Positions 367 through 62,541 of a stretch of DNA of 64,000 nt are shown here, one piece after another. The position numbers and the translations under genes are program-made. This DNA comes from Clostridia bacterium (GTDB lineage: Bacteria; Bacillota; Clostridia; Oscillospirales; CAG-382). Each line of letters starts with the position of its first letter. The stretch's first letter is position 1. The notes below the pieces were generated by a model, which was not told the origin of the DNA, did not search any database, and saw nothing but the letters and a program-made list of their open reading frames with translations. The stretch lies in NCBI GenBank assembly GCA_017620655.1, contig JAGAUT010000085.1:939-64938 (forward strand). Direction: 5' to 3'.

Positions 367-470
367 ATTCCCCGATGTCGGTGTTTGACATCGGGGAATA
401 GTTATTTACGCGATTGATATTGTTTGTTTGCAGAAACACTGCCCGCGAATTTTGCCCGCGGGTGCTACCC
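367..470 (+). repeat. family-X two-hairpin element, single copy
   Basis: Hairpin ATTCCCCGATGTC/GACATCGGGGAAT (367-399), spacer GTTATTTACGCGATTG..., then hairpin CCCGCG/CGCGGG (442-462). Aligns with 60726-60932 and with the reverse complement of 41885-41989. Confidence 0.75.
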
Positions 471-471
471 G

Positions 472-2994: not shown

Positions 2995-3425
2995 TTTTCT
3001 TTTTCGTTGGTTTTATAGAGTGCTAACGTTATGTAAAGGGAGTTCCGCACTCTGCGGAGTGCGTTTCCCGTCACTTTTCGTGACCGAAAAGTAACCAAAA
3101 GGTCCCGCTCAAAAGGAGAGATGGCTCGGTTGAGGTTATTTAGAGTACAAACCTGCTCGCCTTGACCACTGTAAGGGTCAAGGCTCAAATTCTGCCAAAC
3201 CCACCGCATTTTTCTCAACCTCCGCTGACCTCTCTCCTTCGCCGCGGCGGCTTACCTCTCACATTTGGTGTGGGTTCATGTTTGTGATGAGTTTGACCGC
3301 TTGCGTTTATGGCGGTCAAACGGAATTGCACTCGTGCAATTAACACCGATTAATATCCCAAAAGTGTTGGTGCTAAGTTCTTTCTTTTTTGCTTACTTTT
3401 TTCTTTTCGGAAAGAAAAAAGTAAG
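2995..3425 (-). repeat. mosaic block A: at least 6 hairpin modules incl. R-like (3073-3092), 3160-3183, 3291-3321, 3324-3341 and T hairpin 3392-3425
   Basis: Perfect 15-bp T hairpin CTTACTTTTTTCTTT/AAAGAAAAAAGTAAG. Other modules have homologues at 62436-62466 and 10275-10307. Confidence 0.75.
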
Positions 3426-5564: not shown

Positions 5565-5643
5565 TTGTTTTCTCCTTTTGGCATTATGCTCTATACGGTA
5601 TTAATTATATCACAAAGTACCGCATACGTCAACTTCAAGATAC

Positions 5644-5670
5644 AAAAAACGCCCGAAAAGTCGGGCGTTT
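5644..5670 (-). terminator. intrinsic terminator after rpiB
   Basis: Hairpin CGCCCGA-AAAG-TCGGGCG flanked by A-run/T-run. Confidence 0.75.
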
Positions 5671-5679
5671 CTTAACTAT

Positions 5680-6129
5680 TTAGTTGTTTTCTTCAAGTGC
5701 CATAATCATATCGACACGTCTCTGATGTCTTCCACCTTCAAAGTCTGTTTCAACAAAGGCATCAACCATCATTTTTGCAGTTTCAATACCGATAACCCTT
5801 GCACCTAGGCAAAGAATGTTTGCATCGTTGTGCTGACGTGTCAGCTTTGCAGAGTAAACTTCACTGCACGCCGCCGCTCTGACACCTTTCACCTTGTTTG
5901 CCGCAAGGCTCATGCCGATACCTGTTCCGCAGATAAGAATACCGAGGCTTGCCTTATCGGCAACAACAGCCTTACCCACCTTTTCTGCATATATGGGATA
6001 GTCTACACTTTCAGGTGTATAGGGGCCGAGGTCTTCTACGTTATAGCCCTTATCATTAAGATAGCCGATAATGTCGTTCTTCATGTGAAGTGCCGCATGG
6101 TCGCAGCCGATGTATATTGTCTTTGACAT
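5680..6129 (-). CDS. rpiB: ribose-5-phosphate isomerase B
   Basis: 149 aa. IYIGCDHAA and ICGTGIGMSLAANKVKGVRAA are RpiB/LacAB signatures. Confidence 0.9.
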   Translation of the reverse strand: MSKTIYIGCDHAALHMKNDIIGYLNDKGYNVEDLGPYTPESVDYPIYAEKVGKAVVADKASLGILICGTGIGMSLAANKVKGVRAAACSEVYSAKLTRQHNDANILCLGARVIGIETAKMMVDAFVETDFEGGRHQRRVDMIMALEENN

Positions 6130-6608: not shown

Positions 6609-6825
6609 AATACGTTTCCTTTCCTGTTACTTTCTTAAGGAGAAAGTAACCAAAGACCTTTCAAGCCCAGCTCCTTTTCGCCAAACGCAAAAGTCCTTTG
6701 TTATATTCTCAATTGGAATTTGTTTTTGTATAGCACTTCTGGCAGTGCTGTTGCTCATTTTGCAAAGACTCCCCGAAATTCTTTCTTTTTTGCTTACTTT
6801 TTCTTTTCAGCAAAGAAAAAGTAAG
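6609..6825 (-). repeat. mosaic block B: R module (6626-6662) + T unit (~6715-6825)
   Basis: The R hairpin GTTACTTTCT/AGAAAGTAAC + CAAAGACCTTT matches 23801-23836 (reverse complement) over 23+11 nt. The T hairpin at 6793-6825 has a perfect 14-bp stem. Confidence 0.85.
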
Positions 6826-8659: not shown

Positions 8660-10012
8660 TTATTCAGCCTTATCAGCCTTGGAAAGCACTACATTTACGA
8701 TGATACCGAGAATGAGGGCACATGCGATAGATGTAATTGTAACCTTGCCGAAAGAAAGTGTAAGACCGCCGATACCTGCAATGAGGATTGTAGAAGCTAC
8801 GAAAAGATTTCTGTTTTCGTTAAGATCTACAGGCTGGAGCATCTTAAGACCGGAAACAGCGATGAATCCGTAAAGCGCCATACAAACGCCGCCCATTACG
8901 CAGGAAGGAATTGTATTAACAAATGCTACGAAAGGAGAAAGGAAGGAAATGAGAATTGCGAGAACTGCTGCTGTCTGGATTGTGTAAACAGAAGCGTTGC
9001 CGGAAATAGCAACACAGCCAACAGATTCGCCGTATGTTGTGTTGGGGCATCCGCCGAAGATTGCACCTGCCATGGAGCCGACACCGTCGCCGAGAAGTGT
9101 TCTTGCAAGACCGGGTTCTTCAATAAGGTCCTTTTCGATGATGGAAGAAATGTTCTTGTGGTCAGCTACGTGTTCAGCAAATACAACGAATGCAACGGGA
9201 ACATATGCAACAGCGATGGAAGCGATGTATGCACCGTCAATAGCTTCAAAACCGCCGAGAGCTTTAAGGAAAGTGAATTCAGGTAATGCAACGAATGTTG
9301 AAAGCTTAACGCCGTCAGCAACGAGAGCCTTGAAAGCATCAAAGTTTATAATCTGCATAGCCTCAATACCTGCCGCATTGCCGATAAGTGTAAAGATAAC
9401 GGAGAGCGCATAGCCTGCAAGAATACCGATGATGAAGGGAATCATCTTAACTGTCTTTTTCCCGAAGGTTGCGCAAAGAGCAACAACTATGAGTGTAACT
9501 ATACCAACAATTGTTGTGAAATAGGGGCTAGCCGCAGGTACACTGCCTGTACCCTTTGCAAGGTCGCCTACAGCGTTGCCTGCAAGAGAAAGACCGATGA
9601 TGGCAACTGTCGGACCGATAACAACTGCGGGCATGAGCTTGTTAATCCAGTTTACGCCGACGCACTTAACGATAAGAGCAATAACAACATAAACGAGGCC
9701 TGCAAGGATTGCACCGATGATGAGACCGAGGTAACCTAGTTCAACAGTTACAGCACCTGCAAAGGCTGCTGCCATGGAGCCGAGGAACGCGAAGGATGAG
9801 CCGAGGAAAACAGGGCTTGAGAACTTAGTGAAAAGTCCGTATACGATTGTACCTACACCTGCACCGAAAAGTGCTGCTGCGGGCTGCATGCCGTTACCGA
9901 TGATTACGGGAACAACGAGTGTTGCTGTCATAATCGCAAGTAACTGCTGGATTGCAAACACAATGTTTGCACCAAACTTGGGTTTGTCTTTAATGCCGTA
10001 AACTAATTTCAT
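8660..10012 (-). CDS. NCS2-family nucleobase (uracil/xanthine-type) permease
   Basis: 450 aa and polytopic. The N-terminus IVFAIQQLLAIMTATLVVPVI and overall pattern are typical of uracil/xanthine permeases. Substrate not assignable. Confidence 0.8.
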   Translation of the reverse strand: MKLVYGIKDKPKFGANIVFAIQQLLAIMTATLVVPVIIGNGMQPAAALFGAGVGTIVYGLFTKFSSPVFLGSSFAFLGSMAAAFAGAVTVELGYLGLIIGAILAGLVYVVIALIVKCVGVNWINKLMPAVVIGPTVAIIGLSLAGNAVGDLAKGTGSVPAASPYFTTIVGIVTLIVVALCATFGKKTVKMIPFIIGILAGYALSVIFTLIGNAAGIEAMQIINFDAFKALVADGVKLSTFVALPEFTFLKALGGFEAIDGAYIASIAVAYVPVAFVVFAEHVADHKNISSIIEKDLIEEPGLARTLLGDGVGSMAGAIFGGCPNTTYGESVGCVAISGNASVYTIQTAAVLAILISFLSPFVAFVNTIPSCVMGGVCMALYGFIAVSGLKMLQPVDLNENRNLFVASTILIAGIGGLTLSFGKVTITSIACALILGIIVNVVLSKADKAE

Positions 10013-10081
10013 ATGTAGTTTACCTCCTTTTTATTTATAATACGCCTGCATGACAGGCATTATTATATTCCCGCCGATATG

Positions 10082-10110
10082 AAAAAAGATGCCCGTAAAA
10101 AAGGCATCTT
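10082..10110 (-). terminator. leader (attenuator) terminator upstream of permease ORF
   Basis: Minus strand AAGATGCC-loop-GGCATCTT followed by TTTT, about 70 nt upstream of ATG 10012. Upstream AAAAAAGGCA can pair with TGCCTTTTTT as an antiterminator. Confidence 0.55.
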
Positions 10111-10189
10111 CAAAAGTTTCACATTCTTTCGGGGTTTCGCCGTGAAAAAAGCTCTGCCTTTTTTGAATGGTGTTTCTTCATCCTCGAAG

Positions 10190-10219
10190 ATTATATCACA
10201 ACTTGTCGTAGTTTGTCAA
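10190..10219 (-). promoter_or_regulatory. SigA-type promoter of nucleobase permease
   Basis: TTGACA (10219-10214), an 18-nt spacer, then TATAAT (10195-10190) on the minus strand. Confidence 0.55.
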
Positions 10220-10274
10220 TAGAATTTTCACAATATATTGAGTTTTATCACATGCTCAGGCGTCAAACACAAAA

Positions 10275-10307
10275 ATCCCGACCGCCATAAATTCTAGCGG
10301 TCGGGAT
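10275..10307 (-). terminator. hairpin + U-tract ending the repeat block downstream of the histidine phosphatase gene
   Basis: 11-bp stem ATCCCGACCGC/GCGGTCGGGAT followed by TTTTGTGTTT on the minus strand. The stem-loop belongs to a repeat family (see findings). Confidence 0.55.
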
Positions 10308-10321
10308 GTGTACTTGTACAA

Positions 10322-10559
10322 TACTAATCGGGATTGTTTTTTGCATTGCACTTCGGGCAGTATGGTTTGTTTTTTATCCTTAAATACCCCGAAGCTCTTT
10401 TCTTCTTGCTTACTTCTTCTTTTTCGTAAAGAAGTATTCTTTTAATTGGTATTTAGCTTTGCATGGCACTTCGGGCAGTACTGTTAGAATTATATCTCAG
10501 ATTCCCCGAAGTTCTTTTCTTCTTGCTTACTTCTTCTTTTCCGTAAAAGAAGAAGTAAG
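10322..10559 (-). repeat. two tandem ~118-bp T units
   Basis: CTTCGGG at 10351 and 10469, and CTTACTTC at 10409 and 10526, give a 117-118 bp period. The terminal hairpin at 10526-10559 has a perfect 15-bp stem. Same family as 6715-6825. Confidence 0.85.
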
Positions 10560-11279
10560 TTAAAACGGTATACTGTTATTATATCTTGTGGGAAGTCCGC
10601 TTTCATAGATATGAGAATCATTTGAAAGTGTCAGCATTTTTGGGAAAACAACATTATCTTTTTCCACGGCAAAGTCGATTACCGTCATGCTTGAATGGCA
10701 CATTGTAAAGTGGGTAGAATAAATCGGGTAAGGAACATCGAGAAGTGCACTCAAAAATGCGGTGCCGAAGCCTTCGTGGGCAAAGAGTGCAACCCTGTCA
10801 TTGTTTGGATTTTCTGCAATATAGTAACCCTTTTCCCTGTCGTGTCTGTAGCCGAGAGAAAGCATAAATGCATCCGCTTCCCTCTCGATTCTGAGAGTTC
10901 CTTCCTTGATTCTTGTGTTTTTGAATGCCTCATGGTCGTACCAGTTTATGCCCATAGCTCTTAATTCTTGGGACATAAGAAGCTTTTTGATGTGAGTATG
11001 CTGATAGCACCAGGTATAGAAGTTTTCGTCGTTGGGCATGGAAAAATCCTGCCATGCATACTGCTCGTTACACCAGTCAAGAATTTCAATTTCCTTCTTT
11101 AAAAGCTCTGCTGTGGGTTTGGCAGTAAGCATTGCACGGTTGGAGCTTGATGCATAAATCTTATCAAGTCCGTATCTTGCAAGTCTGTATTTTATCGCCT
11201 CTGCCTGCTCAAGTCCGAGTGGTGTTAAGCTGTCGGGGTTATATATGGGGTCTCCGTGTCTTATGTAGAAAAATAACAT
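10560..11279 (-). CDS. histidine phosphatase (phosphoglycerate-mutase-like) family protein
   Basis: 239 aa with the catalytic RHG motif at the N-terminus (FYIRHGDP) and a later HEGF motif. Confidence 0.75.
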   Translation of the reverse strand: MLFFYIRHGDPIYNPDSLTPLGLEQAEAIKYRLARYGLDKIYASSSNRAMLTAKPTAELLKKEIEILDWCNEQYAWQDFSMPNDENFYTWCYQHTHIKKLLMSQELRAMGINWYDHEAFKNTRIKEGTLRIEREADAFMLSLGYRHDREKGYYIAENPNNDRVALFAHEGFGTAFLSALLDVPYPIYSTHFTMCHSSMTVIDFAVEKDNVVFPKMLTLSNDSHIYESGLPTRYNNSIPF

Positions 11280-11305: not shown

Positions 11306-11418
11306 ACAATCCCTCAGTCGCTTTGCGACAGCTCCCTTTACACAAGGGAGCCATATTTACAGACAAGCCCTCCTTGTGTAAAGGAGGGTGTCATCCGCAT
11401 GGGTGACGGGAGGATTGT
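11306..11418. repeat. P-family inverted pair (MITE-like, ~113 bp)
   Basis: Arms 11306-11352 and 11367-11418 are reverse-complement versions of one unit: ACAATCCCTC box, variable hairpin, then CTCCCTTTACACAAGGGAG hairpin. Confidence 0.85.
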
Positions 11419-18962: not shown

Positions 18963-19155
18963 ATGTTTCACCTCCCAAAAATAAAAAATGCCCTTTTCGA
19001 CCATAGAAAAAGGACAATGTAGGGAGAATATAAATACAAAATATCACTATTCTCATTAAATTACATCTTCCTCGACAGGCGAACCGTTGCCAACGGCTCA
19101 TTATAGTCTCTGACGGCACTTCTGCGCCGTCCGACCACCTGTTTTCTTCGGTCAA
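18963..19155 (-). promoter_or_regulatory. long rplJ 5' leader, candidate L10-leader autoregulatory RNA
   Basis: About 190 nt between the predicted promoter and the rplJ ATG, with several stems (e.g. CCGTTGGCAACGG). The position matches the Firmicutes L10 leader. The structure was not modelled. Confidence 0.45.
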
Positions 19156-19162
19156 CATGAGC

Positions 19163-19191
19163 ATATTACCACAAACAATTACGTTTGTCAA
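19163..19191 (-). promoter_or_regulatory. SigA-type promoter upstream of rplJ
   Basis: TTGACA (19191-19186), a 17-nt spacer, then TAATAT (19168-19163) on the minus strand. Confidence 0.5.
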
Positions 19192-19779: not shown

Positions 19780-20832
19780 TTACAATTCCACTTTCATATA
19801 CCCACAAGTAAACGGAAAGAAATCAAAATTTTCTGTACCTGTATGAATAAATCCGAAAGACTCATACCAACTGCGAAGCACAATATTTTCCTCAACAATA
19901 CCAATTTTCATTTGAGTACAACCCATTTTCCGAGCCTCATCAAAAGCGTGAAGTAACAGTGTTTTGCCTATACCATTATGTCGGTATTCCGGCAAAACAG
20001 CAAGGTTATTTAATTCGCATACGCCGTTTTTGGGCAAGGTAAGAGAATAATATCCCACAAATTTGTCACCGTCAAAGTATGCGAACATAGGTCTTTTTTC
20101 ATTTGCAAACTGCCACAAAAGCCGTTCTTCACTCATGGCAAAGGCGGTAAATCTCGGTGCGTTTTCGGGCGTAAAGCCAAACTCGTCTGCAACTGTCTGG
20201 AAGGCACGCTTTATTACAGAGACACATTCGGGGATGTGGTTTTGTTGAATTGTCATGATACGTTTTTTCAAAACAAATGTCAACGCATCAAACCGTTCAC
20301 CGTCAACCTCACGAATACCGACTTTTCTTCCTACAATGTCAAAGCCGAGCTTTTCAGCACACTTTATCATACGAGTATTTCCTGACCATGTTTGCGTATA
20401 AATCCCGTTAATTCCGTTATTTGCAAGATAATCTATATACGCCAAGAGTGCCTTTGTGCCGACACCGTTGCCCCACACTGTCTTTTCGCAAATATCAATA
20501 CCGATTGCAAGGCGTGGTTCGGCGTTTTCACTTGCTTTGTCTGCAGATATTCTGTTATATTCGTTATCAATATAATAAGCATTTACCCAGCCGATATGAT
20601 GTCCGTCATATTCAATTTCAAATCTTCGGCGAAGCGTGCTTTGGGAAAGATTCTCTACAGATTTGTAAAAGGCTGCCCAATGCTCTCTTTCGTCAGCTTC
20701 ATTTGTTTCGACTTTTTCCCACGGAGCATCCCATTTGCACCATTCGGTTTGGGTTGTAAACCAGCGGACATAATCTTCAATATCGGCTTTAACCATGTCA
20801 CGCAGGATTATGTTTTTATGTTCAATTATCAT
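19780..20832 (-). CDS. fusion of two GNAT N-acetyltransferase domains
   Basis: 350 aa from ATG 20832 (AGAGGA RBS). Two acetyl-CoA motifs: VWGNGVGTKAL and EYRHNGIGKTLL. Confidence 0.75.
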   Translation of the reverse strand: MIIEHKNIILRDMVKADIEDYVRWFTTQTEWCKWDAPWEKVETNEADEREHWAAFYKSVENLSQSTLRRRFEIEYDGHHIGWVNAYYIDNEYNRISADKASENAEPRLAIGIDICEKTVWGNGVGTKALLAYIDYLANNGINGIYTQTWSGNTRMIKCAEKLGFDIVGRKVGIREVDGERFDALTFVLKKRIMTIQQNHIPECVSVIKRAFQTVADEFGFTPENAPRFTAFAMSEERLLWQFANEKRPMFAYFDGDKFVGYYSLTLPKNGVCELNNLAVLPEYRHNGIGKTLLLHAFDEARKMGCTQMKIGIVEENIVLRSWYESFGFIHTGTENFDFFPFTCGYMKVEL

Positions 20833-21316
20833 TTGTTTTCCTCTCAAAAACCATTCTCAGTTCCGTTTGTTCAGTCCCAATCAAGACTTTCTTTTCTGCA
20901 CCATCAAATCTGAATCCGTATCTTTCGTAAAAACGTATAGCCTTATCGTTTCCTTTGAGCACCCAAAGGGCGATTTTATTATAATCAGACATCCTCTTTA
21001 CCGCTTCATTCATAAGACCAAAGCCTATCTTTTTTCCGTGGTATTCTTCAAGGACATACAGACCTTGTATTTCGCCCATATCTGTGTCCTTTTCATCACG
21101 GTATGCACCAAAGCCGACAAATCCTATAACGGTTCCGTTTTCAACAGCAACCAAGGAATTATCCTTTTGAAATGAAGCAATTTTCTCACACTTTTCAAGG
21201 GACATTGTGTTCAAATAACTGTCATCGATAAGTCCCGTGTAAGTTTCTTGCCAAGATTTGTAAAGGACATAGCCCATGCCGTTTACTTCAGCTTGGGTTG
21301 TAACTGGTTTTATCAT
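20822..21316 (-). CDS. GNAT family N-acetyltransferase
   Basis: 164 aa from ATG 21316 (AGGTGA RBS). Motif A: EYHGKKIGFGLM. Confidence 0.75.
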   Translation of the reverse strand: MIKPVTTQAEVNGMGYVLYKSWQETYTGLIDDSYLNTMSLEKCEKIASFQKDNSLVAVENGTVIGFVGFGAYRDEKDTDMGEIQGLYVLEEYHGKKIGFGLMNEAVKRMSDYNKIALWVLKGNDKAIRFYERYGFRFDGAEKKVLIGTEQTELRMVFERKTNDN

Positions 21317-21320
21317 AAAA

Positions 21321-21749
21321 TCACCTGCAATCATATACATAGTTCAAAAGATTTTCCGCCTGCGACACGCAAATAAATCCGCATTTTTCAAAAAACTTGA
21401 TTGAATCAGTATTGTCCGTTGCTATGGAAACTTCAATTCTATCAAACGTACAAGGCAAAACACCGCTTTTAATATCTCTTATCGCCGCTGTTCCATAGCC
21501 TTTGTTCTGATGTTCGGGGAAAATCAAAATACTTAAATATAAAGTATTTCCGTCAAACTCGGTGTGAACAGTTCCGACTAAAGTGTTTTCGCTGTAAATT
21601 TTGTAGTATGAAATCTTTTCCTCAGTAGTAATATAATTCCAATAGTTGTCGCTGATGCTGATAAACTTTGATATTTCCGGAAGTGAGTGCACAGAGGCAA
21701 GATGTGGGATATCAGTATCCTTTGTATCTTTAATCTCAATATATTTCAT
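21321..21749 (-). CDS. GNAT family N-acetyltransferase
   Basis: 142 aa. Motif A: EHQNKGYGTAAI. Confidence 0.7.
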   Translation of the reverse strand: MKYIEIKDTKDTDIPHLASVHSLPEISKFISISDNYWNYITTEEKISYYKIYSENTLVGTVHTEFDGNTLYLSILIFPEHQNKGYGTAAIRDIKSGVLPCTFDRIEVSIATDNTDSIKFFEKCGFICVSQAENLLNYVYDCR

Positions 21750-21880
21750 TTTCTTTCACCATTTCAATTATACCACCACCCCCTCACCCTGTCAATCAAC
21801 TCATAGTTTACACAAACCCCTTTACTTTTTCACAATAATAATGTAAGATATTTCTTGGAATTTACATAAGGAGGGGAAGT

Positions 21881-22741
21881 ATGTTCAAAAGAAACGAAAA
21901 GAACGGCGTTTGTTTTTACACAAGTCCCACACTTGAAAAGTACGGCATAGTCCACGGCTTTTTTACCCGACACGGCGGTGTAAGCGGCGGCGATTTTGAT
22001 TCCCTCAACGTAAGTACGGCAAGAAAAGACAGAAGCGGAAGCCTTGACAATCAAAAAAACGTACTCGAAAACTACCGTATTGCCCTCTCGGCTCTCGGCA
22101 CTGTTCCCGAAAAAGCAGTCGGTGCAAAGCAGGTGCATGAAAACACGGTTTTAAGGGTGACAGACGAAGATTGTGCAAGAGGCATAAACCCGAGTCTTGC
22201 CGAATTATCCGGCTGTGACGGGTTGTTTCTTGACGGCTCGGCAAGAAAAATCGATGCTCTTTGCGTCAAGACCGCCGACTGTGTACCCATACTGCTTTCA
22301 TCAAAAGACGGAAAGGAAGTTTCTGCCGTTCATGCAGGCTGGCGCGGAACTGTCGCCGACATTGTAACAAAAGCGGCGGAAAGATTCACCTGTAAAAAAG
22401 AGGACATACTCTGTGCGATAGGACCTTGTATCGGCGTTTGCTGTTACGAGGTAGGCGAAGAAGTATATGAAGCTGTAAAAAGGTTATTTGCTTTCAAGGG
22501 CATTGAGGACAGGACAGACAGCATGTTCAGAAATGTCTGCTCCTGCTCGGCAAATACCAAGAAAAAAGCCAATCTTTCAGAGATAAACAGACAGCTTCTT
22601 ATTAACTTCGGCATACCCGAAGAAAACATTGATGTGTCGGAAATCTGCACGGCATGCCACGAGGATGAATTTTTCTCCCACAGAGCAAGCGGCGGATTTT
22701 CGGGGACTTTTCCATCAATCATCAAGCAGAATTCTAATTAA
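21881..22741 (+). CDS. pgeF: YfiH/PgeF (DUF152) purine-nucleoside phosphorylase / peptidoglycan editing factor family
   Basis: 286 aa with HGFFTRHGGVS, KTADCVPILL and HAGWRGT motifs. Confidence 0.85.
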   Translation: MFKRNEKNGVCFYTSPTLEKYGIVHGFFTRHGGVSGGDFDSLNVSTARKDRSGSLDNQKNVLENYRIALSALGTVPEKAVGAKQVHENTVLRVTDEDCARGINPSLAELSGCDGLFLDGSARKIDALCVKTADCVPILLSSKDGKEVSAVHAGWRGTVADIVTKAAERFTCKKEDILCAIGPCIGVCCYEVGEEVYEAVKRLFAFKGIEDRTDSMFRNVCSCSANTKKKANLSEINRQLLINFGIPEENIDVSEICTACHEDEFFSHRASGGFSGTFPSIIKQNSN

Positions 22742-22743
22742 AC

Positions 22744-22874
22744 GGCTCCCTTGTGCAAAGGGAGCTGGCAGCGTTAGCTGACTGAGGGATTGTCGCCAAA
22801 CTTCAAATTACAATCCCTCCGATTTTCGTCACGAATTATGTGACGAAAACCACCTCCCTTTACACAAGGGAGGC
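22744..22874. repeat. P-family pair (box-to-box orientation)
   Basis: Units 22744-22793 (reverse) and 22810-22874 (forward) share the boxes GAGGGATTGT / ACAATCCCTCC and the hairpin CCTCCCTTTACACAAGGGAGG. Confidence 0.85.
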
Positions 22875-22903
22875 TTACAAGATAAACTCAAAAGGATATT
22901 TCA

Positions 22904-23752: not shown

Positions 23753-23800
23753 CAAGAATCGAAATTGCGTATAAGCCGTTCTAATAAAGGTGCTAAATTA

Positions 23801-23957
23801 AAAGGTCTTTGCTTACTTTCTCCTTAAGAAAGTAAGGACAATCCCTCCGAGTTTTGCCAAGCAAAACCCACCTCCCTTTACACAAGGGAGGCATAGTTTC
23901 GAAAAAGCCCGCCTTGTGCAAAGGAGGGTGTCAGTCGAAGACTGACGGGAGGATTGT
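23801..23957. repeat. R module (23801-23836) followed by P-family inverted pair (23838-23892, 23907-23957)
   Basis: AAAGGTCTTTG + hairpin CTTACTTTCT/AGAAAGTAAG, then two P units with variable hairpins at 23851-23867 and 23930-23946. Confidence 0.85.
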
Positions 23958-23982
23958 AAAAATATAAGAAAGGCGTAAACAT

Positions 23983-25335: not shown

Positions 25336-25791
25336 ATGGTAAATTCATCACTTATTTACATAAAAAAAGACGGCAAGTATCTAATGCTTCACCGTGTCAA
25401 GAAAAAGAACGATATGAACCGCGACAAATGGATTGGAATCGGCGGAAAATTCGAGCACGGAGAAAGTCCCGAGGATTGTGTGAGACGTGAAACAACAGAA
25501 GAAGTGGGACTTGTTTTAGGCAAAGTCGAATACAGAGGAATTATCACCTTTGTGCTGGGTGATGAAACAGAGTATATGCACCTATTCACATCAAGCGACT
25601 TTTCGGGAAATCTCAAGGAAGTATGCGACGAAGGCAACCCCGAGTGGGTAGACATAAAAGAGGTTTACAATCTTCCCATTTGGGAGGGCGACAAGATTTT
25701 CTTAGAGCTCATTGAAAGCAACGACACGCCGTTTTTCTCGTTGAAATTGGTATATGAAAACGATGTTCTGGTTGAGCACATTTTATATTGA
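25336..25791 (+). CDS. NUDIX hydrolase (MutT-like)
   Basis: 151 aa with Nudix box GGKFEHGESPEDCVRRETTEEVGL. Confidence 0.85.
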   Translation: MVNSSLIYIKKDGKYLMLHRVKKKNDMNRDKWIGIGGKFEHGESPEDCVRRETTEEVGLVLGKVEYRGIITFVLGDETEYMHLFTSSDFSGNLKEVCDEGNPEWVDIKEVYNLPIWEGDKIFLELIESNDTPFFSLKLVYENDVLVEHILY

Positions 25792-25802
25792 CAAACAAAA
25801 AG

Positions 25803-25838
25803 CCTTGCAGGATTTTACTCGTGCAAGGTTTTATTTTT
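25803..25838. terminator. bidirectional terminator between NUDIX gene and proB
   Basis: CCTTGCA...TGCAAGG stem followed by TTTTATTTTT on plus, with a T-rich run on minus as well. Confidence 0.6.
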
Positions 25839-25839
25839 G

Positions 25840-26622
25840 TTATTGAGCTTTGAAATGTGTGCCGACATCTTTACCCTCAAGCAAATCATAAAGCTTTTCG
25901 GGCTTATTGCCGATGGTGACATACATATCAATGCCACGGTCTGTTACATACTTTGCCGCTTCAAGCTTTGTTGCCATGCCGCCGGTACCGCGGTTTGAGC
26001 CTGCGCCGTTGGCAAGGGATATGATGCTATCGTCTATCTTTTCGACCTTATGTATAAGCTTTGCATTTGGATTTGTTCTGGGGTTATCGTCGTAAAGTCC
26101 CTCGATATCAGACATGATTATGAGCTTATCTGCCTCAACAAGTCCTGCAACTATTGCCGACAAAGTATCATTGTCACCAAACACCTTCTTAGGCGATTCA
26201 ATCTGATGGTGGCTTACCGAGTCGTTTTCATTTACTATCGGGATAATGCCGTTCTCAAGCAGTGCCGAAAAGGTGTTTTTGAGATTATTTCTTCTATAAT
26301 CCGATTCTATATCTTCCTCGGTAAGAAGAATCTGAGCTACCATGTTACCGTATTCCGAAAAGAGCTTATCGTACATATGCATAAGCTCACACTGACCGAC
26401 AGCCGCCGCAGCCTGCTTCATTTTCATATCTTTAGGTCGCTCGTTAAGTCTCATTTTATTGACACCTACCGAAATTGCACCCGACGAAACGAGTACAACC
26501 TCGAACCCTGAATTTCTCAGATCCGAAAGCACCTGACAGAGTTTATCAAGCGTCTTTATATCCACCGAGCCGTTTTCATGTGTGAGCGTCGATGTGCCGA
26601 CTTTTACTACTATTTTTTGCAT
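25840..26622 (-). CDS. proB: glutamate 5-kinase (short form, no PUA domain)
   Basis: 260 aa with VVKVGTSTLT and a GTGGMATKLEAA-type motif. Confidence 0.9.
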   Translation of the reverse strand: MQKIVVKVGTSTLTHENGSVDIKTLDKLCQVLSDLRNSGFEVVLVSSGAISVGVNKMRLNERPKDMKMKQAAAAVGQCELMHMYDKLFSEYGNMVAQILLTEEDIESDYRRNNLKNTFSALLENGIIPIVNENDSVSHHQIESPKKVFGDNDTLSAIVAGLVEADKLIIMSDIEGLYDDNPRTNPNAKLIHKVEKIDDSIISLANGAGSNRGTGGMATKLEAAKYVTDRGIDMYVTIGNKPEKLYDLLEGKDVGTHFKAQ

Positions 26623-26769
26623 TTTTATTCCCTACTTTCTTGGAAGAAAGTAGGCAAAGAACTTTTCATTTGGCTACTTTCTACAATTGGTTTAGCCGTT
26701 ATATTATTTTCTCGATTGGTGTTTCATTTTGATGCCGATAAGGCAGGCATCAAAATGAGTGCTGAAAAA
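26623..26769 (-). repeat. mosaic block G: R module (26631-26666) + conserved-loop hairpin (26725-26757)
   Basis: CCTACTTTCT/AGAAAGTAGG + CAAAGAACTTTT. The 12-bp hairpin CATTTTGATGCC/GGCATCAAAATG has flank CTCGATTGGTGTTTC, shared with 62371-62417. Confidence 0.8.
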
Positions 26770-27234
26770 TCACTCATTCATTAACTTCGGATGTAATAAA
26801 AATATTTGATTTGGGTATCCAAATTCTACTATCAGTTTATTCTCAACAAAACCGAATTTCTTATATAGTGCTCTTGGTGCAATCCCTTTTTCGTCTTCTT
26901 CTCGGAAAGTTGATACAGATATATCTTTCGTTCTGTCAAGATACTCCAATGACTTTCTAAGCAAGCACGAAGCAACGCCCTGTCTTCTGCATTCGGGTGA
27001 AACACCCAAACAACAAATCATATTATGACCACGTGAAAATAAAAGCACTCCAATAATTTGCTCATTATCATCCTTTGCACACAATGCCTGTGATTTGCCC
27101 ATGAAACGCAAAACCGTGTTACGATGCTCTGCAATTTTTTCGTTCGTCTCTAAGCCGGGGAAGTTCCAACTGATTTTTTCAACAAGACTCATCCAGTTAT
27201 CAATATCATCAATTTTACCAAATTGAATCATCAT
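26770..27234 (-). CDS. GNAT family N-acetyltransferase
   Basis: 154 aa from ATG 27234 (GGAGAAAG RBS). Motif A: ECRRQGVASCLL. Sits between proA and proB. Confidence 0.7.
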   Translation of the reverse strand: MMIQFGKIDDIDNWMSLVEKISWNFPGLETNEKIAEHRNTVLRFMGKSQALCAKDDNEQIIGVLLFSRGHNMICCLGVSPECRRQGVASCLLRKSLEYLDRTKDISVSTFREEDEKGIAPRALYKKFGFVENKLIVEFGYPNQIFLLHPKLMNE

Positions 27235-27317
27235 AGTAGCTTTCTCCGAATTCAAATTTATCTGTTTCGACAGTTTTTAACGTCATTCATATAAAGGGAT
27301 ATATAGTTTCGTTTAAA

Positions 27318-27535
27318 GGCTCCCTCCGAGAGCGCGACGCGTCAATAAAACAACCCTGTGTGGTTGTTTTTAGCCAAAGCGGATTGTAAGCTGTGCTTGC
27401 AATCAGAGCAAAAGCTGTCAGCCTATGCTGACTGAGGGAGAGTGCGTATAATCAGTGCTTTTGCAGAACCAAATGCAACGCAGGCTCCTTCCGTCATTTT
27501 CTTCGAAAATGCCACCTCCCTCTCGGAGGGAGGCT
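27318..27535 (-). repeat. mosaic block H: degenerate P-like units and extra hairpins
   Basis: GGCTCCCTCCGAGAG (27318-27332) versus CCTCCCTCTCGGAGGGAGG (27515-27533). GTCAGC/GCTGAC+TGAGGGA (27417-27439) matches 22769-22790. Further hairpins at 27347-27371, 27382-27404 and 27495-27511. Confidence 0.7.
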
Positions 27536-27545
27536 TTTATGTGCT

Positions 27546-28790
27546 CTAAGTTCTTGTTTGACCCGTTCCAAGCACCACATACTTAGTTGTCGTAAGCGCC
27601 TCAAGTCCCATGGGGCCACGTGCGTGCATCTTCTGTGTGGAAATACCGATTTCCGCACCGAGACCGAATTCTTCGCCGTCTGTAAATCTTGTTGAAGCAT
27701 TGACATACACCGCCGCCGAGTCGATTTTTGTTGTGAAATAGTCGGCGTTTGCCTTGTTTTCGGTTACTATTGCTTCGCTATGCTTTGTGGAATGCTCATT
27801 GATATGCGTAACCGCTTCGAACACGTCTTTTACAACCTTAACGGAAAGGATATAGTCGTTATACTCAGTGTAAAAATCTTCTTCTGTTGCCGCTGTTATG
27901 TCGGGAAGAATCTTCAAGGTCTTTTCACAGCCCCTAAGTTCCACATTCTTTTCCTTCATCCTTTCCTGCATCATGGGAAGGAACTTTTCTGCTATCTTTT
28001 CATGCACAAGAAGGTTCTCTGCACTGTTACAAACACTCGGTCTCTGCGCCCTTGCGTTGAAGGCAATTTCATTTGCCATGTCGAGATTTGCAGATTCATC
28101 AACATACACGTGGCAGTTGCCTGCACCCGTTTCAATTACGGGTACTGTCGCATTTTCAACAACCGACTGTATAAGACCCTTACCCCCTCTCGGGATAAGC
28201 ACGTCAATCTTGCCGTTTGCCGTCATAAGTGCCTTTGCGGAATCACGGGAGGTGTCGGAAAGTACATTTACGCAGTTTTCGTCAAAGCCGCACTCTTTAA
28301 GTGCACGTCTTATGGAGTCGCAGAAAGCAAGATTTGAATTTATTGCCTCTTTGCCGCCTCGAAGTACGCAGACATTGCCGCTTTTCAGGCAGAGACATGC
28401 CGCGTCCACCGTAACATTGGGTCGGGATTCATAGATAATTCCCACAACGCCGAGAGGTACGGATACCTTTCTTATTTCAAGTCCGTTGGGTCGGATATTC
28501 GTTTCTGCCTTTCCTATCGGGTCGGGCAAAGCTATAACCTTGCCGATAGCGTTTATTATTGCATTTATCTTGCTTTCCGAAAGGCTGAGTCTGTCAATCA
28601 TTGACTCTGACATACCGTTTGCCCTTGCATTATTTATATCCTCGGCATTGGCATCGAGGATTTTTTTCATGTCCTCACCTATCGTCTTTGCAACTTTGGA
28701 GAGGATGTTGTTCTTTTCGTTTTCCGATGCCGAAGAAAGTTGAAATGACGCCTTTTTTGCACCGTCAAACACAACATCTAAATTACTCAT
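27546..28790 (-). CDS. proA: gamma-glutamyl phosphate reductase
   Basis: 414 aa with catalytic Cys motif PSVCNSAENLLVH. Confidence 0.9.
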   Translation of the reverse strand: MSNLDVVFDGAKKASFQLSSASENEKNNILSKVAKTIGEDMKKILDANAEDINNARANGMSESMIDRLSLSESKINAIINAIGKVIALPDPIGKAETNIRPNGLEIRKVSVPLGVVGIIYESRPNVTVDAACLCLKSGNVCVLRGGKEAINSNLAFCDSIRRALKECGFDENCVNVLSDTSRDSAKALMTANGKIDVLIPRGGKGLIQSVVENATVPVIETGAGNCHVYVDESANLDMANEIAFNARAQRPSVCNSAENLLVHEKIAEKFLPMMQERMKEKNVELRGCEKTLKILPDITAATEEDFYTEYNDYILSVKVVKDVFEAVTHINEHSTKHSEAIVTENKANADYFTTKIDSAAVYVNASTRFTDGEEFGLGAEIGISTQKMHARGPMGLEALTTTKYVVLGTGQTRT

Positions 28791-41884: not shown

Positions 41885-41989
41885 CGGAGAGCCTCCGCGG
41901 GCAAATTCGCGGGCTATCTTTTAGATAAACTGATTTCAAGTGTCGCGCAAATAACTTTTTCCTGCCGTCAACAAGGCGGACGGCAGGAA
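41885..41989 (-). repeat. family-X element, reverse orientation
   Basis: The reverse complement reads hairpin TTCCTGCCGTC/GACGGCAGGAA, then GTTATTTGCGCGAC..., then GCCCGCGAATTTGCCCGCGGAGGCTCTCCGC. It aligns with 367-470 and 62478-62541. Confidence 0.75.
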
Positions 41990-42045
41990 AATTACGACAC
42001 CGACGAAGTTTTGACGAAAAACTGATTTAATCCTCACAGATAACC

Positions 42046-42078
42046 AATTCCCGATACCAAACATCGGCATCGGGAATT
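42046..42078. repeat. solo hairpin of the ATTCCC...GGGAAT family
   Basis: AATTCCCGATACC-AAACATC-GGCATCGGGAATT. Homologous to 367-399, with stem changes that keep pairing on one strand. Confidence 0.65.
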
Positions 42079-53435: not shown

Positions 53436-53578
53436 ATAAAAAATACCGCACACAATATCGGTGCGGTACATACGCTTTTCTTCAAGCTAATCTCCCTACG
53501 CCGGTATTATCCGAACAGGTTTAAAGGGTTCGAAGCCACTGCTTCATCTCAGCCGTTTTTCAACAGCACCCCTGATAT
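53436..53578 (-). promoter_or_regulatory. TPP (THI-box) riboswitch with terminator expression platform
   Basis: Minus-strand reading gives GGGGTGCTG...GGCTGAGATGAAG...AACCCTTTAAACCTGTTCGGATAATACCGGCGTAGGGAG, the conserved TPP core. It is followed by hairpin TACCGCAC/GTGCGGTA (53444-53468) plus a U-tract, 18 nt before the thiT ATG. Confidence 0.9.
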
Positions 53579-53599
53579 TGTATTTTGCGGTTCGGGAGT

Positions 53600-60114: not shown

Positions 60115-60742
60115 TAAACATTTCGGAATTATAAGGATTTGGGACAAAATTCATGTCAGCGTTTTCTCCTTTTTTGCCCTTGTATGTTTCATTTCGGCTC
60201 AGGGGTTTATATATTCCTCGCTTTTTCTGTCATGCACTCTGCTTCATGAACTGTCGCACATTTTGTTTATGTACCTGTTTGGTGTAAAAATCTCAAAAAT
60301 TACCGTCTATCCCTTCGGCATTGACATTTCCGCCGACACTTCCCGTATCTCCTACAAAAAAGAACTCATCATCACCCTTGCCGGCAGTGCTTCAAATCTC
60401 ATCTTTGCCTTTATCGGTTGTGTTTTTCTTCAAAAGCACCCCTCTCCGCCGCTCTTGTTCTTTGTCATGTGCAACCTGTTTCTCGGCTGTATGAATCTCA
60501 TTCCCCTGTCTTTTTTTGACGGCGGTAAGGCTATTCGTCTTATTCTTTACGATTGTCTTGATATAGACAGAGCCTTTTACATTCACAAAGGACTAGACAT
60601 ATTCTCGGCATTGATTTTTATATGCTTTTCTGTTTTTTTAATGGCAGGCTCAAGCTTCAATTTGTCCGTAATTTGCGTTGTTGTTTACGCATCACTTTCA
60701 ACCTTTGCTTTATATATTAAAATTCCCTGTCGCAAGCCTTAA
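60107..60742 (+). CDS. M50-family site-2 protease (SpoIVFB-like)
   Basis: 211 aa with an HELSH zinc motif in a TM helix and a later NLIPLSFFDGG motif. Confidence 0.7.
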   Translation: MINKHFGIIRIWDKIHVSVFSFFALVCFISAQGFIYSSLFLSCTLLHELSHILFMYLFGVKISKITVYPFGIDISADTSRISYKKELIITLAGSASNLIFAFIGCVFLQKHPSPPLLFFVMCNLFLGCMNLIPLSFFDGGKAIRLILYDCLDIDRAFYIHKGLDIFSALIFICFSVFLMAGSSFNLSVICVVVYASLSTFALYIKIPCRKP

Positions 60743-60932
60743 TGCGACAGGGAATGGTTTGTTACGCGAATTATTCAGTTTGTTAATGACAAAAACCGCC
60801 CGCGATGTTTGCCGCGGTGCTTCACCGCACCTGTCGCAAGCCTTAATGCGACAGGGAATGGTTTGTTGCGCGAATTATTCAGTTTGTTAATTGCAAAAAC
60901 TGCCCGCTATGTTTGCCGCAGTGCTTCACCGC
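60726..60932 (+). repeat. family-X element, two direct tandem copies (104-nt period, ~93% identical)
   Basis: CCTGTCGCAAGCCTTAATGCGACAGGGAATGGTTTGTT... begins at 60726 and again at 60830. About 7 mismatches counted by eye. Confidence 0.9.
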
Positions 60933-61573
60933 TTTATAATCTTTACCTTTTCGCCATTCTTTAAACCGCAGGCATTTGCATCGTCTGTATCAATGTGCAT
61001 TTCAACATTGAAGTCGTCTCTTACTCTTACCTGAACATCAAAGAACTTTGTGGGCTTGATGCTTTCAACAAGTACGTCTACATAGTCGCCGTCCTTGATG
61101 CCGTTCTTCTGCGCATACTCAGGCGTAAGGTGGATATGGCGGTTGGCAATAATTACGCCTTCCTTGAGATAAACAGACCCCTTAGGACCAACAAGCACGA
61201 GCTTTTCACTGCCCTTGATGTCACCCGAAGGTCTTACAGGCGGACTTACCTTGAGCACAAACGTGTCTGTTCTTGAGATTTCAACCTGTGTGTTCTTTCT
61301 TACAGGTCCGAGTACTCTTACACCTTCAATAGCTCTGAGTGAAGGACCTACGAGAGTTACAAGCTGGTCGGAAGCAAATTCACGTCCCATAAGTGTCTTC
61401 TTCTTGGTAAGCTCAAAGCCCTTGCCGAAAAGCGTGTCAAGGTCTTCTCTCGACAAATGAACGTGTCTTGCCGAAATACCAATCTTTATATCATTATCAT
61501 CGCCGCTTTCAGCCGCCTGCATCTGTTCTACAGCCTTTTTGACAGCCTCGGCGATTACCTTTTCATCATACAT
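60926..61573 (-). CDS. pduL: phosphate propanoyl/acyl-transferase PduL
   Basis: 215 aa with two PduL repeats (GISARHVHLS..; IIANRHIHLTP..). N-terminal amphipathic helix EKVIAEAVKKAVEQM. Confidence 0.85.
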   Translation of the reverse strand: MYDEKVIAEAVKKAVEQMQAAESGDDNDIKIGISARHVHLSREDLDTLFGKGFELTKKKTLMGREFASDQLVTLVGPSLRAIEGVRVLGPVRKNTQVEISRTDTFVLKVSPPVRPSGDIKGSEKLVLVGPKGSVYLKEGVIIANRHIHLTPEYAQKNGIKDGDYVDVLVESIKPTKFFDVQVRVRDDFNVEMHIDTDDANACGLKNGEKVKIIKR

Positions 61574-61607
61574 ATTCTTTCCTCTTTTCTATTCGGAAAA
61601 TGGAGTC

Positions 61608-62270
61608 TTACTGTCTTTCAAGCCCCTGTGTCATGTCGAAGAACTTGAGAATCTCGGTGTGAGGATTTGCAATAACTTCACAGCCGTATGTCTTGGAGTA
61701 GGGCTCTGTTTCAGTCTTGCCTCTTTCAAGTGCCGCAGTTACTGCATCAACCTTGCCTGCTACGATTAAAGTTACAAGTCGTCCGCCAAGTCTCTTTTCA
61801 GTATGTACAAGTCTTACATCTGCCGCCTTTACCATGGCATCAAGACCGATAATTGCAGCGGTATTTCCCTCAACCTCAAGAAGACCGATTGCCGACGCAC
61901 CTTCTACTTCGTATACGTCCTCGGCACCTCTCAAATTCTTGGGAAGCTTCTTGTTAAACTTATCCTTATTGATATCCATAAGGTATGTCATATTCTCAAC
62001 GCCTTCGCCGGGGTTGGGAATAACGTGAGATACAATATAGTGTCCCTTACCTTCTGCATATGCCTTTGCCGCTTCAACAGATGCCTTTACGTCCGCAACG
62101 TTACCCATAATTTTTGCACCCATGATAAGGGGTACGGGAAAACCGGGGTTGAAGGGTCTGTTTCTGTCAAAAGCAATAACCTTTACATTACCTGTTTTTG
62201 CCATGGTATCAGCCGCAACAACCGCAGTTGTAAAGCTGTATACCTCAATCATTCCAAATGCATTATTCAT
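61608..62270 (-). CDS. tandem BMC-domain shell protein (BMC-T)
   Basis: 220 aa with two BMC domains (FGMIEVYSFTTAVVAADTMAKTGNV; AIGLLEVEGNTAAIIGLDAMVKAADV). Confidence 0.8.
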   Translation of the reverse strand: MNNAFGMIEVYSFTTAVVAADTMAKTGNVKVIAFDRNRPFNPGFPVPLIMGAKIMGNVADVKASVEAAKAYAEGKGHYIVSHVIPNPGEGVENMTYLMDINKDKFNKKLPKNLRGAEDVYEVEGASAIGLLEVEGNTAAIIGLDAMVKAADVRLVHTEKRLGGRLVTLIVAGKVDAVTAALERGKTETEPYSKTYGCEVIANPHTEILKFFDMTQGLERQ

Positions 62271-62541
62271 ATATCTTTTCCTTTCCCCCTACTTTTCTTT
62301 CGAAAAAAAGCAGGCAAAAGAACTCGCAATTAGCACCATTCTGTCGGATTCTAAAAACGATTATTCGCTGCTCGATTGGAGTTTCATTTTGCCGTCAATA
62401 AGGCAGACGGCAAAATGATTACAATTTTTTATTAAGTTTGTCTGCTTGCGTTTATGGCAGACAAACGATGTTGGTTGAGCGACACCCGAAGCCGAACTTT
62501 TCACAAGCATTTCCCGTGAATTGCCGGCGGAGGCTCTCCGC
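62271..62541 (-). repeat. mosaic block J: degenerate R module (62288-62325), conserved-loop hairpin (62385-62417), hairpin 62436-62466, partial X (62478-62541)
   Basis: Each module has a homologue elsewhere in the window (26631-26666, 26725-26757, 3291-3321, 41885-41930). Confidence 0.8.

Follow-up and report, generated by a model that had tools for sequence, protein, structure and literature searches.

The stretch of DNA analyzed here (the window; 64,000 nt of contig JAGAUT010000085.1 from Clostridia bacterium) has a G+C content of 44%, carries ordinary housekeeping genes with strong Shine–Dalgarno sequences, and shares ∼91–93% nucleotide identity in syntenic genes with two metagenome-assembled genomes (MAGs), Oscillospiraceae bacterium SIG639 and a Feifaniaceae MAG. 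Between its genes lie hairpins, termed H1, H2, and R, in which an earlier note on this DNA saw the signature of selection on a folded nucleic acid. Perfect hairpins (stem of at least 9 bp, loop of 3–13 nt) numbered 31 in the window, compared with 0–3 (about 2) per mononucleotide shuffle. RNA folding energies of the hairpins lie between −14 and −25 kcal/mol (z-scores between −4 and −9), and every hairpin cited in the note is located in a spacer between co-directional genes, 3′ of a stop codon. Canonical terminators are present elsewhere in the window.

The pairs of related hairpins were found as described. The two H1 copies, at 26724–26758 (site A) and 62384–62418 (site B), have perfect 13-bp stems, one pair longer than had been given, and the three stem pairs by which they differ are each compensated; their loops read GATAAGGCA and AATAAGGCA, respectively. 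Conservation of the H1 flank was equally borne out: the window contains exactly two occurrences of the 21-nt sequence made up of flank and lower stem, CTCGATTGGNGTTTCATTTTG, where none is expected (100 shuffles, up to three mismatches). The H2 copies at 3291–3321 and 62436–62466 have 10-bp stems, the same loop (TTGCGTTTATG), and two differing pairs, both compensated, and the relative proposed at 10275–10307 shares with them GACCGC/GCGGTC as its stem core and TTTATG as the end of its loop, on the opposite strand. Two R hairpins (GTTAC..GTAAC at 6626–6650 and CTTAC..GTAAG at 23812–23836), which are inversely oriented and share 97% identity across 35 nt, show the reported swap of the closing pair from G-C to C-G. 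The claim that hairpins with unrelated stems share the loop core A(A/T/C)AAGGC held only in part: AAGGC/GCCTT is present in 5 of the 31 perfect hairpins (0.12 expected upon loop shuffling), but these five represent only ∼2 homology groups, and the reverse complement of 60735–60742 reads TTAAGGCT, which fits TAAGGC instead.

Rather than being isolated RNA motifs, the hairpins belong as modules to larger repeat units, mobile or mosaic, beside unrelated housekeeping genes. Read in gene direction, the spacers are assembled from recurring modules (R, M1, H2, H1, and a 117-nt unit), all copies of which are extragenic and palindromic. H1, a hairpin with the conserved 3′ flank GAAACNCCAATCGAG, heads a unit of ∼150 nt that ends in R, 0–17 nt before the next start codon, and this H1→R architecture is alike at all loci. 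R, present in ∼8 copies in the 64-kb window, consists of an A/T-rich hairpin (e.g., CTTACTTTTTCTTT-loop-AAAGAAAAAGTAAG) and a one-sided flank, GGTGCTAA...GTTCTTT...GC. M1, a unit of ∼105 nt, has its start at or with the stop codon of the upstream gene, and a terminal hairpin forms its other end. Nine M1 units can be aligned end to end (62% identity); their terminal hairpin has a fixed position and at least three unrelated, interchangeable sequences, the types being H2, ATTCCC...GGGAAT followed by TTT, and the hairpin at 41957–41991. The 117-nt unit carries an R hairpin at its end. These modules are variously combined, also in tandem, in the window and in several comparison sequences (L007, L018, L019, L021, L026, and L028), the tandem periods being 104 nt (60718–60925), 117 nt (10325–10559), and 149 nt (L018 and L028). 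Among the operon spacers filled in this way are those between proA and proB, iscS and iscU, rpmA and obg, and the genes for aldehyde dehydrogenase and a bacterial microcompartment (BMC) shell protein. At five genes (window positions 3426, 6826, and 10560; L018 positions 4441 and 7849), the R hairpin begins at the base right after the stop codon (TGA/TAA followed by CTTAC), and R modules in inverse orientation bracket some spacers. The extended R palindrome takes in part of the stop codon, as if the element supplied or targeted it.

Pairing within the stems is almost complete. Across 10 H1 sequences, 98.4% of 122 cells are paired, with four pairs changed on both sides, none changed on one side only, and a single G·U; across nine H2 sequences, 100% of 90 cells are paired, with three pairs changed on both sides and, again, none on one. 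Together, G·U accounts for 1 of 212 cells. The ∼20 R copies comprise at least 10 variants in sequence or length, nearly all of which are perfectly Watson–Crick paired, the length variants being symmetrical; comparison of R orthologues revealed substitutions in the loops and none in the stems. The earlier claim of selection on a fold is thus upheld insofar as pairing is kept far above chance, but the covariation does not consist of many independent compensatory events. Only three versions of the H1 upper stem exist, which form a series (ATGCC, CCGCN, and CCGTC); ATGCC and CCGTC are both found in the window genome as well as in SIG639, and CCGCN is found in L016 and L021. At site A, the flanks of the window and its SIG639 orthologue are 96% identical, and SIG639, a sister species, carries the other stem version: 7 of 21 hairpin-top positions differ, compared with 8 of 196 flank positions (Fisher p = 1e-4), and the SIG639 top is identical to that of site B in the window. 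This difference points to replacement of the whole top, not to stepwise compensation, and such replacement is easily explained by short-patch conversion because the flanks of the copies are identical.

The pattern of a conserved loop on a variable stem, as proposed from pairs of hairpins, is an artefact of comparing two copies. The H2 stem GTTTGACCGC is present in six of nine copies, whereas the same nine copies have seven different loops, and the H1 loops also vary between copies. The tops of both H1 and H2 are also found on other lower stems, inverted relative to transcription, which argues against the loop as a strand-specific recognition determinant; at 41957–41991, the version-2 top of H1, with the loop found in L018, sits inverted on a different lower stem. 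Flipped loops in palindromes and tops common to different lower stems point to exchange between hairpins at the DNA level. The near-lack of G·U pairs and the symmetrical length variants of R fit templated processes at the DNA level at least as well as stepwise compensation in RNA. The asymmetry of G·U versus A·C mismatches (two imperfect pairs favor gene-sense RNA, one favors the opposite strand) is based on too few pairs to separate the RNA from the DNA level. A terminator-like hairpin at 22740–22771, after the gene at 21881–22741, was rebuilt between the window (GCTCCCTT/AAGGGAGC) and SIG639 (L008; GCTTCCCC/GGGGGAGC) with pairing kept; therefore, rapid hairpin turnover with retained pairing is general in this lineage.

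The distribution of H1 was assessed with a pattern anchored on flank and loop, the stem being left free, in 185,579 species genomes. Seven real copies were recovered (five in SIG639, one in a Clostridia MAG from roe-deer caecum, and one in the Feifaniaceae MAG), along with ∼7 chance matches in GC-rich coding DNA; a metagenome scan gave one real and three chance matches, and one more copy came from a proB relative. A covariance model identified 11 full H1 copies (63–95 bits), the inverted top at 41956–41991 (32 bits), and one diverged copy in L027. The full copies are confined to four to five related genomes, i.e., that of the window organism and those of a few uncultured Clostridia related to it. 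The few real matches in the genome and metagenome scans mean that the H1 family is rare in public data; it is real, narrowly distributed, and low in copy number. Contigs of the same species (L001–L005) are identical at site A and therefore uninformative. H1 is in gene orientation at seven of seven independent loci, H2 at all six to seven, and M1 at nine of nine, one of which is in a + gene block of the window. Because M1 runs along the genes in both + and − blocks, and the GC skew gives no replication switch within the window, M1 follows transcription. For H1, transcription and replication orientation are confounded. The genes 3′ of H1 (proB and those for a BMC shell protein, YebC, RecD2, UPF0029, an FGGY kinase, and Obg) are unrelated, on which ground a regulon was rejected.

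Units are present at some and absent from other orthologous sites. In the distant relatives L027 and L028, proA and proB are separated by a gap of 4–26 nt, the ancestral spacer; in L026 the spacer consists of M1-H2-H1-R, and in the window and SIG639 it contains a GNAT gene plus an H1-R unit. This junction (window 25840–28790) is a hotspot, with DUF4886 and LarA fragments in L024/L025. The orthologue of site B in the Feifaniaceae MAG (L019) is devoid of M1 and H2 and has one extra R module. Between window positions 25700–26800 and L026 positions 9700–11000, identity is 95–98% across the cassette plus ∼150 nt at the start of proB, and falls to ∼70% at the proB 3′ end. This gradient (98% to ∼70% into proB) indicates a recombination tract, which rules out L026 as an independent lineage, and it suggests that the tract was recently exchanged between co-resident populations of one metagenome study.

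Taken together, the hairpins are probably modules of a lineage-specific, mosaic family of intergenic repeats, in which the “compensatory” differences result from stem versions having been swapped whole. The family is a previously undescribed, narrowly distributed instance of a class already known, mosaic extragenic palindromic repeats, and not a new structured RNA. The compensatory pattern would arise when whole hairpin tops are copied between units, either by short-patch gene conversion, aided by the identical flanks, or by replication template switching within or between palindromes. New stem versions may be made symmetrical in one step, and copies losing pairing would be removed or decay. 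REPIN hairpins commonly show compensatory changes (PMC3116915), evolution of REPs by gene conversion was proposed by Higgins et al (1988; as cited in PMC3116915), and template switching can create and repair perfect stems, multibase compensatory changes included (PMC8794818). As for function, H1, H2, and M1 are likely non-terminating intercistronic mRNA hairpins because, judged from their position, the units are part of polycistronic transcripts, lack U-tracts, and keep one orientation. As stable structures, they could be barriers to exonucleases at 3′ and 5′ ends, and may be processing or translation-coupling punctuation at open reading frame (ORF) boundaries, as for REP elements.

Several observations weigh against a mosaic repeat family. 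None of the 48 ORFs scanned in the 64 kb of genome contained a transposase domain or corresponded to a RAYT gene, and no target-site duplication was found. H1 is a low-copy element (two copies in the window plus five in SIG639, by pattern search), and classical REP families are far larger. A functional RNA, or a site bound by a protein, would also be expected to show strict orientation with transcription and a conserved 15-nt flank. Constraint could be the reason why the cassette is highly conserved between the window and L026, though the gradient into proB suggests a recombination tract instead. Very unlikely is a dedicated “punctuation” system for polycistronic mRNAs, in which R would cap ORFs exactly at stop codons and ribosome-binding sites, and H1 and H2, through their conserved flanks and loops, would serve a lineage-specific nuclease or RNA-binding protein as identity elements, or else an undescribed recombinase acting on single-strand DNA would use them as substrates and shuffle the tops between sites. 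If either were true, the few stem versions would represent classes of functional specificity and not neutral variants.

The proposal of the earlier note, that H1 and H2 are structured RNAs (cis-acting or small) whose fold is under purifying selection and whose loops (AAGGC, TTTATG) are recognized by a protein or RNA partner, would account for perfect pairing with double changes, the conserved 3′ flank and lower stem, an orientation locked to transcription at all loci, the occurrence of R substitutions in loops but not stems among orthologues, and the enrichment of AAGGC in loops. It is nevertheless unlikely: the neighboring genes are unrelated, there are only three stem versions, one orthologous site exchanged its version whole, H2 loops are more variable than H2 stems, H1 and H2 tops are also found inverted relative to transcription, G·U pairs are essentially lacking, and units are gained and lost among close relatives. 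Moreover, no Rfam 15 family corresponded to H1, H2, or R, even at E < 5, only a thiamine pyrophosphate (TPP) riboswitch and a ribosomal protein L10 leader having passed the threshold; microRNA and leader models gave weak matches at H1 and R (E-values of 0.1–3). Watson–Crick-only pairing, the conserved flank beside a variable stem, symmetrical length variants, presence/absence polymorphism, and tandem arrays would suit substrates of a single-stranded DNA enzyme (e.g., an HUH/Y1 transposase of RAYT or IS200/IS605 type) that recognizes hairpin and flank, so that the units would be non-autonomous passengers oriented by the replication strand and not by transcription; most window genes are on the leading strand suggested by GC skew, which is why the orientation of H1 is confounded. 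However, no gene for such an enzyme was found in the 64 kb, M1 runs along transcription in + and − blocks with no replication switch seen, and the GTAG-type foot typical of REPs is present in neither H1 nor H2, which leaves this explanation distinctly unlikely.

That the hairpins are ordinary intrinsic terminators, or a terminator plus promoter cassette alike by descent, with H1 and H2 as terminators of the upstream gene and the R flank (GTGCTA/GTGACA, 18 nt, TACTTT) as promoter, is most unlikely. All of them do lie 3′ of a stop codon, the ATTCCC-type hairpins and hairpin 10275 are followed by T runs, and the R flank contains −35-like and TAnnnT-like blocks at a constant spacing of 18–19 nt; yet neither H1 nor H2 is followed by a U-tract on either strand, the units are inside operons, where termination would be polar, R units also point into the 3′ ends of genes, and the candidate promoter, which agrees with the consensus at only ∼7 of 12 positions, was missed by a gene-sense promoter scan. 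The R flank as a sigma-70 promoter was accordingly rejected on its consensus match and retained only as part of this minor rival. A promoter 5′ of R that uses ATGAAA of the H1 3′ flank as −35 was dismissed upon manual reading, as the −10 candidates at 18 nt lack the conserved final T at seven of eight loci. A sigma-54 reading of TGGTGCTAATTGC fails because the GG-GC spacing is 10 nt and should be 12. A helix between the H1 and R flanks was predicted in one sequence but is unsupported across copies, the variable flank base showing no covariation, and kissing of the H1 and H2 loops would involve four complementary bases only, which is no better than chance.

By architecture, the mosaic repeat family resembles REP/BIME of E. 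coli and BOX of pneumococci; the likeness is one of kind, and does not make it a homologous family. REPs are known to stabilize upstream mRNA, and those within ∼15 nt of a stop codon lower translation of the upstream gene. With these protective or translation-modulating roles, the location of R at stop codons or just 5′ of ribosome-binding sites matches by analogy. REP/BIME of enterobacteria and REPINs of Pseudomonas are, like the elements here, short palindromes outside genes, placed between genes that are transcribed together or right behind stop codons; conserved linker modules, mosaics, and tandem arrays are further traits in common with REP/BIME, and the hairpin potential of REPs and REPINs is likewise kept by compensated differences between copies (PMC3116915). 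On the other hand, the REP foot GT(A/G)G is absent from H1 (TCAT...ATGA) and H2 (GTTTG...CAAAC), and only R ends in GTAGG/GTAAG; H1 appears to be low in copy number instead of numbering hundreds, inverted REP doublets and a RAYT gene are not in view (64 kb), the loops of H1 and H2 are large (9–11 nt), and the repeats belong to a Gram-positive anaerobe.

BOX of Streptococcus pneumoniae (boxA-boxB(n)-boxC), RUP, and Correia elements are modular, non-coding intergenic repeats with a variable number of modules and a narrow lineage, and form stable transcript hairpins beside unrelated genes. The H1/H2/M1/R family shares the modularity, the variable module number, the unrelated neighbors, and the narrow lineage, and has the trait typical of BIME and BOX, i.e., several short modules in variable order and number, intergenic, and within one lineage. 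It differs from BOX in its modules and sequences, in the exchange of tops between modules in both orientations, and in the placement of R exactly at ORF boundaries. Similar to miniature inverted-repeat transposable elements (MITEs), the H1 and M1 units are small, non-coding, present or absent among relatives, and tandem or nested, and a true MITE is present in the same window; unlike MITEs, however, H1→R and M1 show neither clear terminal inverted repeats nor clear target-site duplications, and their orientation is fixed relative to transcription. This separate MITE (∼125 nt, 23839–23965, with a second copy at 11306–11416 and possibly a partial third near 22810–22900) has 11-bp terminal inverted repeats, ACAATCCCTCC ... 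GGGAGGATTGT, and two internal hairpins of the CTCCCTT/AAGGGAG type; the copy at 23839–23965 is missing at the orthologous SIG639 site (L008), and copies have the same orientation in + and − gene blocks.

As in integron attC sites, structure is more conserved than sequence and hairpins follow ORFs, but the stems are perfect, without extrahelical bases, and the neighbors are core housekeeping operons and not cassettes. Reading H2 as attC was rejected, as GTTTGAC ... GTCAAAC reverses the order of RYYYAAC ... GTTRRRY and has the wrong purine pattern. Stable hairpins 3′ of stop codons, with T runs after the ATTCCC-type hairpins and hairpin 10275, are reminiscent of intrinsic terminators; H1, H2, and R, however, have no U-tract on either strand, the loops of H1 and H2 are large, and the stems of R are A/U-rich. 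In gene sense, the H1 and H2 stems are directly followed by AAAC and TCA, respectively, and in antisense by GAGTGC and GGAAT, none of which is a U-tract.

These findings call for caution in covariation-based discovery of RNA, since perfect “compensatory” differences can stem from a few versions swapped whole, as one orthologous site shows directly. As swapped stem versions mimic compensation, tree-aware tests and comparisons of orthologues are needed before selection on structure is claimed. In uncultured Clostridia of gut and rumen, such repeats invade the spacers of core operons (proAB, iscSU, and rpmA-obg), with hairpins exactly at ORF boundaries, and may affect mRNA stability and translation in organisms beyond present culture.

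Table 1. Repeat modules and hairpins of the window (coordinates are window positions).
Feature	Coordinates	Strand	Description
H1 hairpin, site A	26724..26758	-	13-bp stem, upper-stem version 1 (GATGCC/GGCATC); gene-sense loop TGCCTTATC
Complete H1→R unit	26623..26769	-	Fills the spacer between GNAT gene and proB; gene-sense order TGCAC, H1, GAAACACCAATCGAG, ∼60 nt, GTTCTTTGCC, R hairpin, ribosome-binding site, ATG
R hairpin CCTACTTTCT TGGA AGAAAGTAGG	26631..26654	-	8 nt 5′ of proB start codon
H1 hairpin, site B	62384..62418	-	Upper-stem version 2 (GCCGTC/GACGGC); gene-sense loop TGCCTTATT
H2 hairpin, variant stem GTTTGTCTGC/GCAGACAAAC	62436..62466	-	Terminal hairpin of M1 unit 62436–62541
M1 unit body	62467..62541	-	Begins right after aldehyde dehydrogenase stop codon; not present at orthologous site of L019
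Imperfect R hairpin	62294..62322	-	One gene-sense G·U pair; just 5′ of ribosome-binding site of BMC shell gene
H2 hairpin, common stem GTTTGACCGC/GCGGTCAAAC	3291..3321	-	Followed by a further module of ∼70 nt (3290–3220)
R hairpin, 15-bp stem	3392..3425	.	Starts at base after Tex stop codon; flank GGTGCTAAGTTCTTTCTTTTTTG on far side
Hairpin with H2-like top (GACCGC ... TTTATG ... GCGGTC)	10275..10307	-	Inverted relative to transcription; lower stem ATCCC/GGGAT; followed by TTTTGTGTTT, terminator-like in appearance
M1 unit	41885..41991	+	Begins at M18 aminopeptidase stop codon; terminal hairpin 41957–41991 has H1 version-2 top, loop AACAAGGCG, inverted relative to H1
ATTCCC-type hairpin AATTCCCGATACC AAACATC GGCATCGGGAATT	42046..42078	+	Related to hairpin 367–399
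M1 unit	367..471	-	After response-regulator gene; terminal hairpin ATTCCCCGATGTC AAACACC GACATCGGGGAAT, then TTT
Two tandem M1 units, 104-nt period	60718..60925	-	Terminal hairpins 60722–60755 and 60830–60855; gene-sense loop TTAAGGCT
R hairpin, GTTAC variant	6626..6650	-	17 nt 5′ of iscU/NifU start codon
117-nt repeat unit	6710..6825	+	Terminal R hairpin 6793–6825 abuts iscS stop codon
Two tandem 117-nt units	10325..10559	+	R hairpin 10526–10559 ends second unit and abuts stop codon
R unit, GGTGCTAA ... GGTCTTTG plus hairpin 23812–23836	23789..23836	+	Directly 5′ of ribosome-binding site in SIG639; MITE inserted between R and gene in window

The module of ∼70 nt that follows H2 in the window (3220–3290) is 82% identical to L007 positions 5612–5682, and GGAGG and ATG near 3196 in the window copy probably mark the true start of the HAD hydrolase gene, instead of the TTG at 3218. 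The region 60926–63924 (−) is part of a pdu/eut-like bacterial microcompartment cluster (PduL-type phosphotransacylase, tandem-BMC shell protein, and aldehyde dehydrogenase), with repeat cassettes between the genes. The TPP riboswitch is located at 53476–53583 (−; 76 bits), and the L10 leader at 18974–19169 (−; 44.2 bits, barely over threshold). Three GNAT acetyltransferase genes follow one another at 19780–21749 (−), and ahead of this trio lies a promoter at 21767–21795 (−) that reads as a perfect TTGACA-17-TATAAT with an upstream TG.

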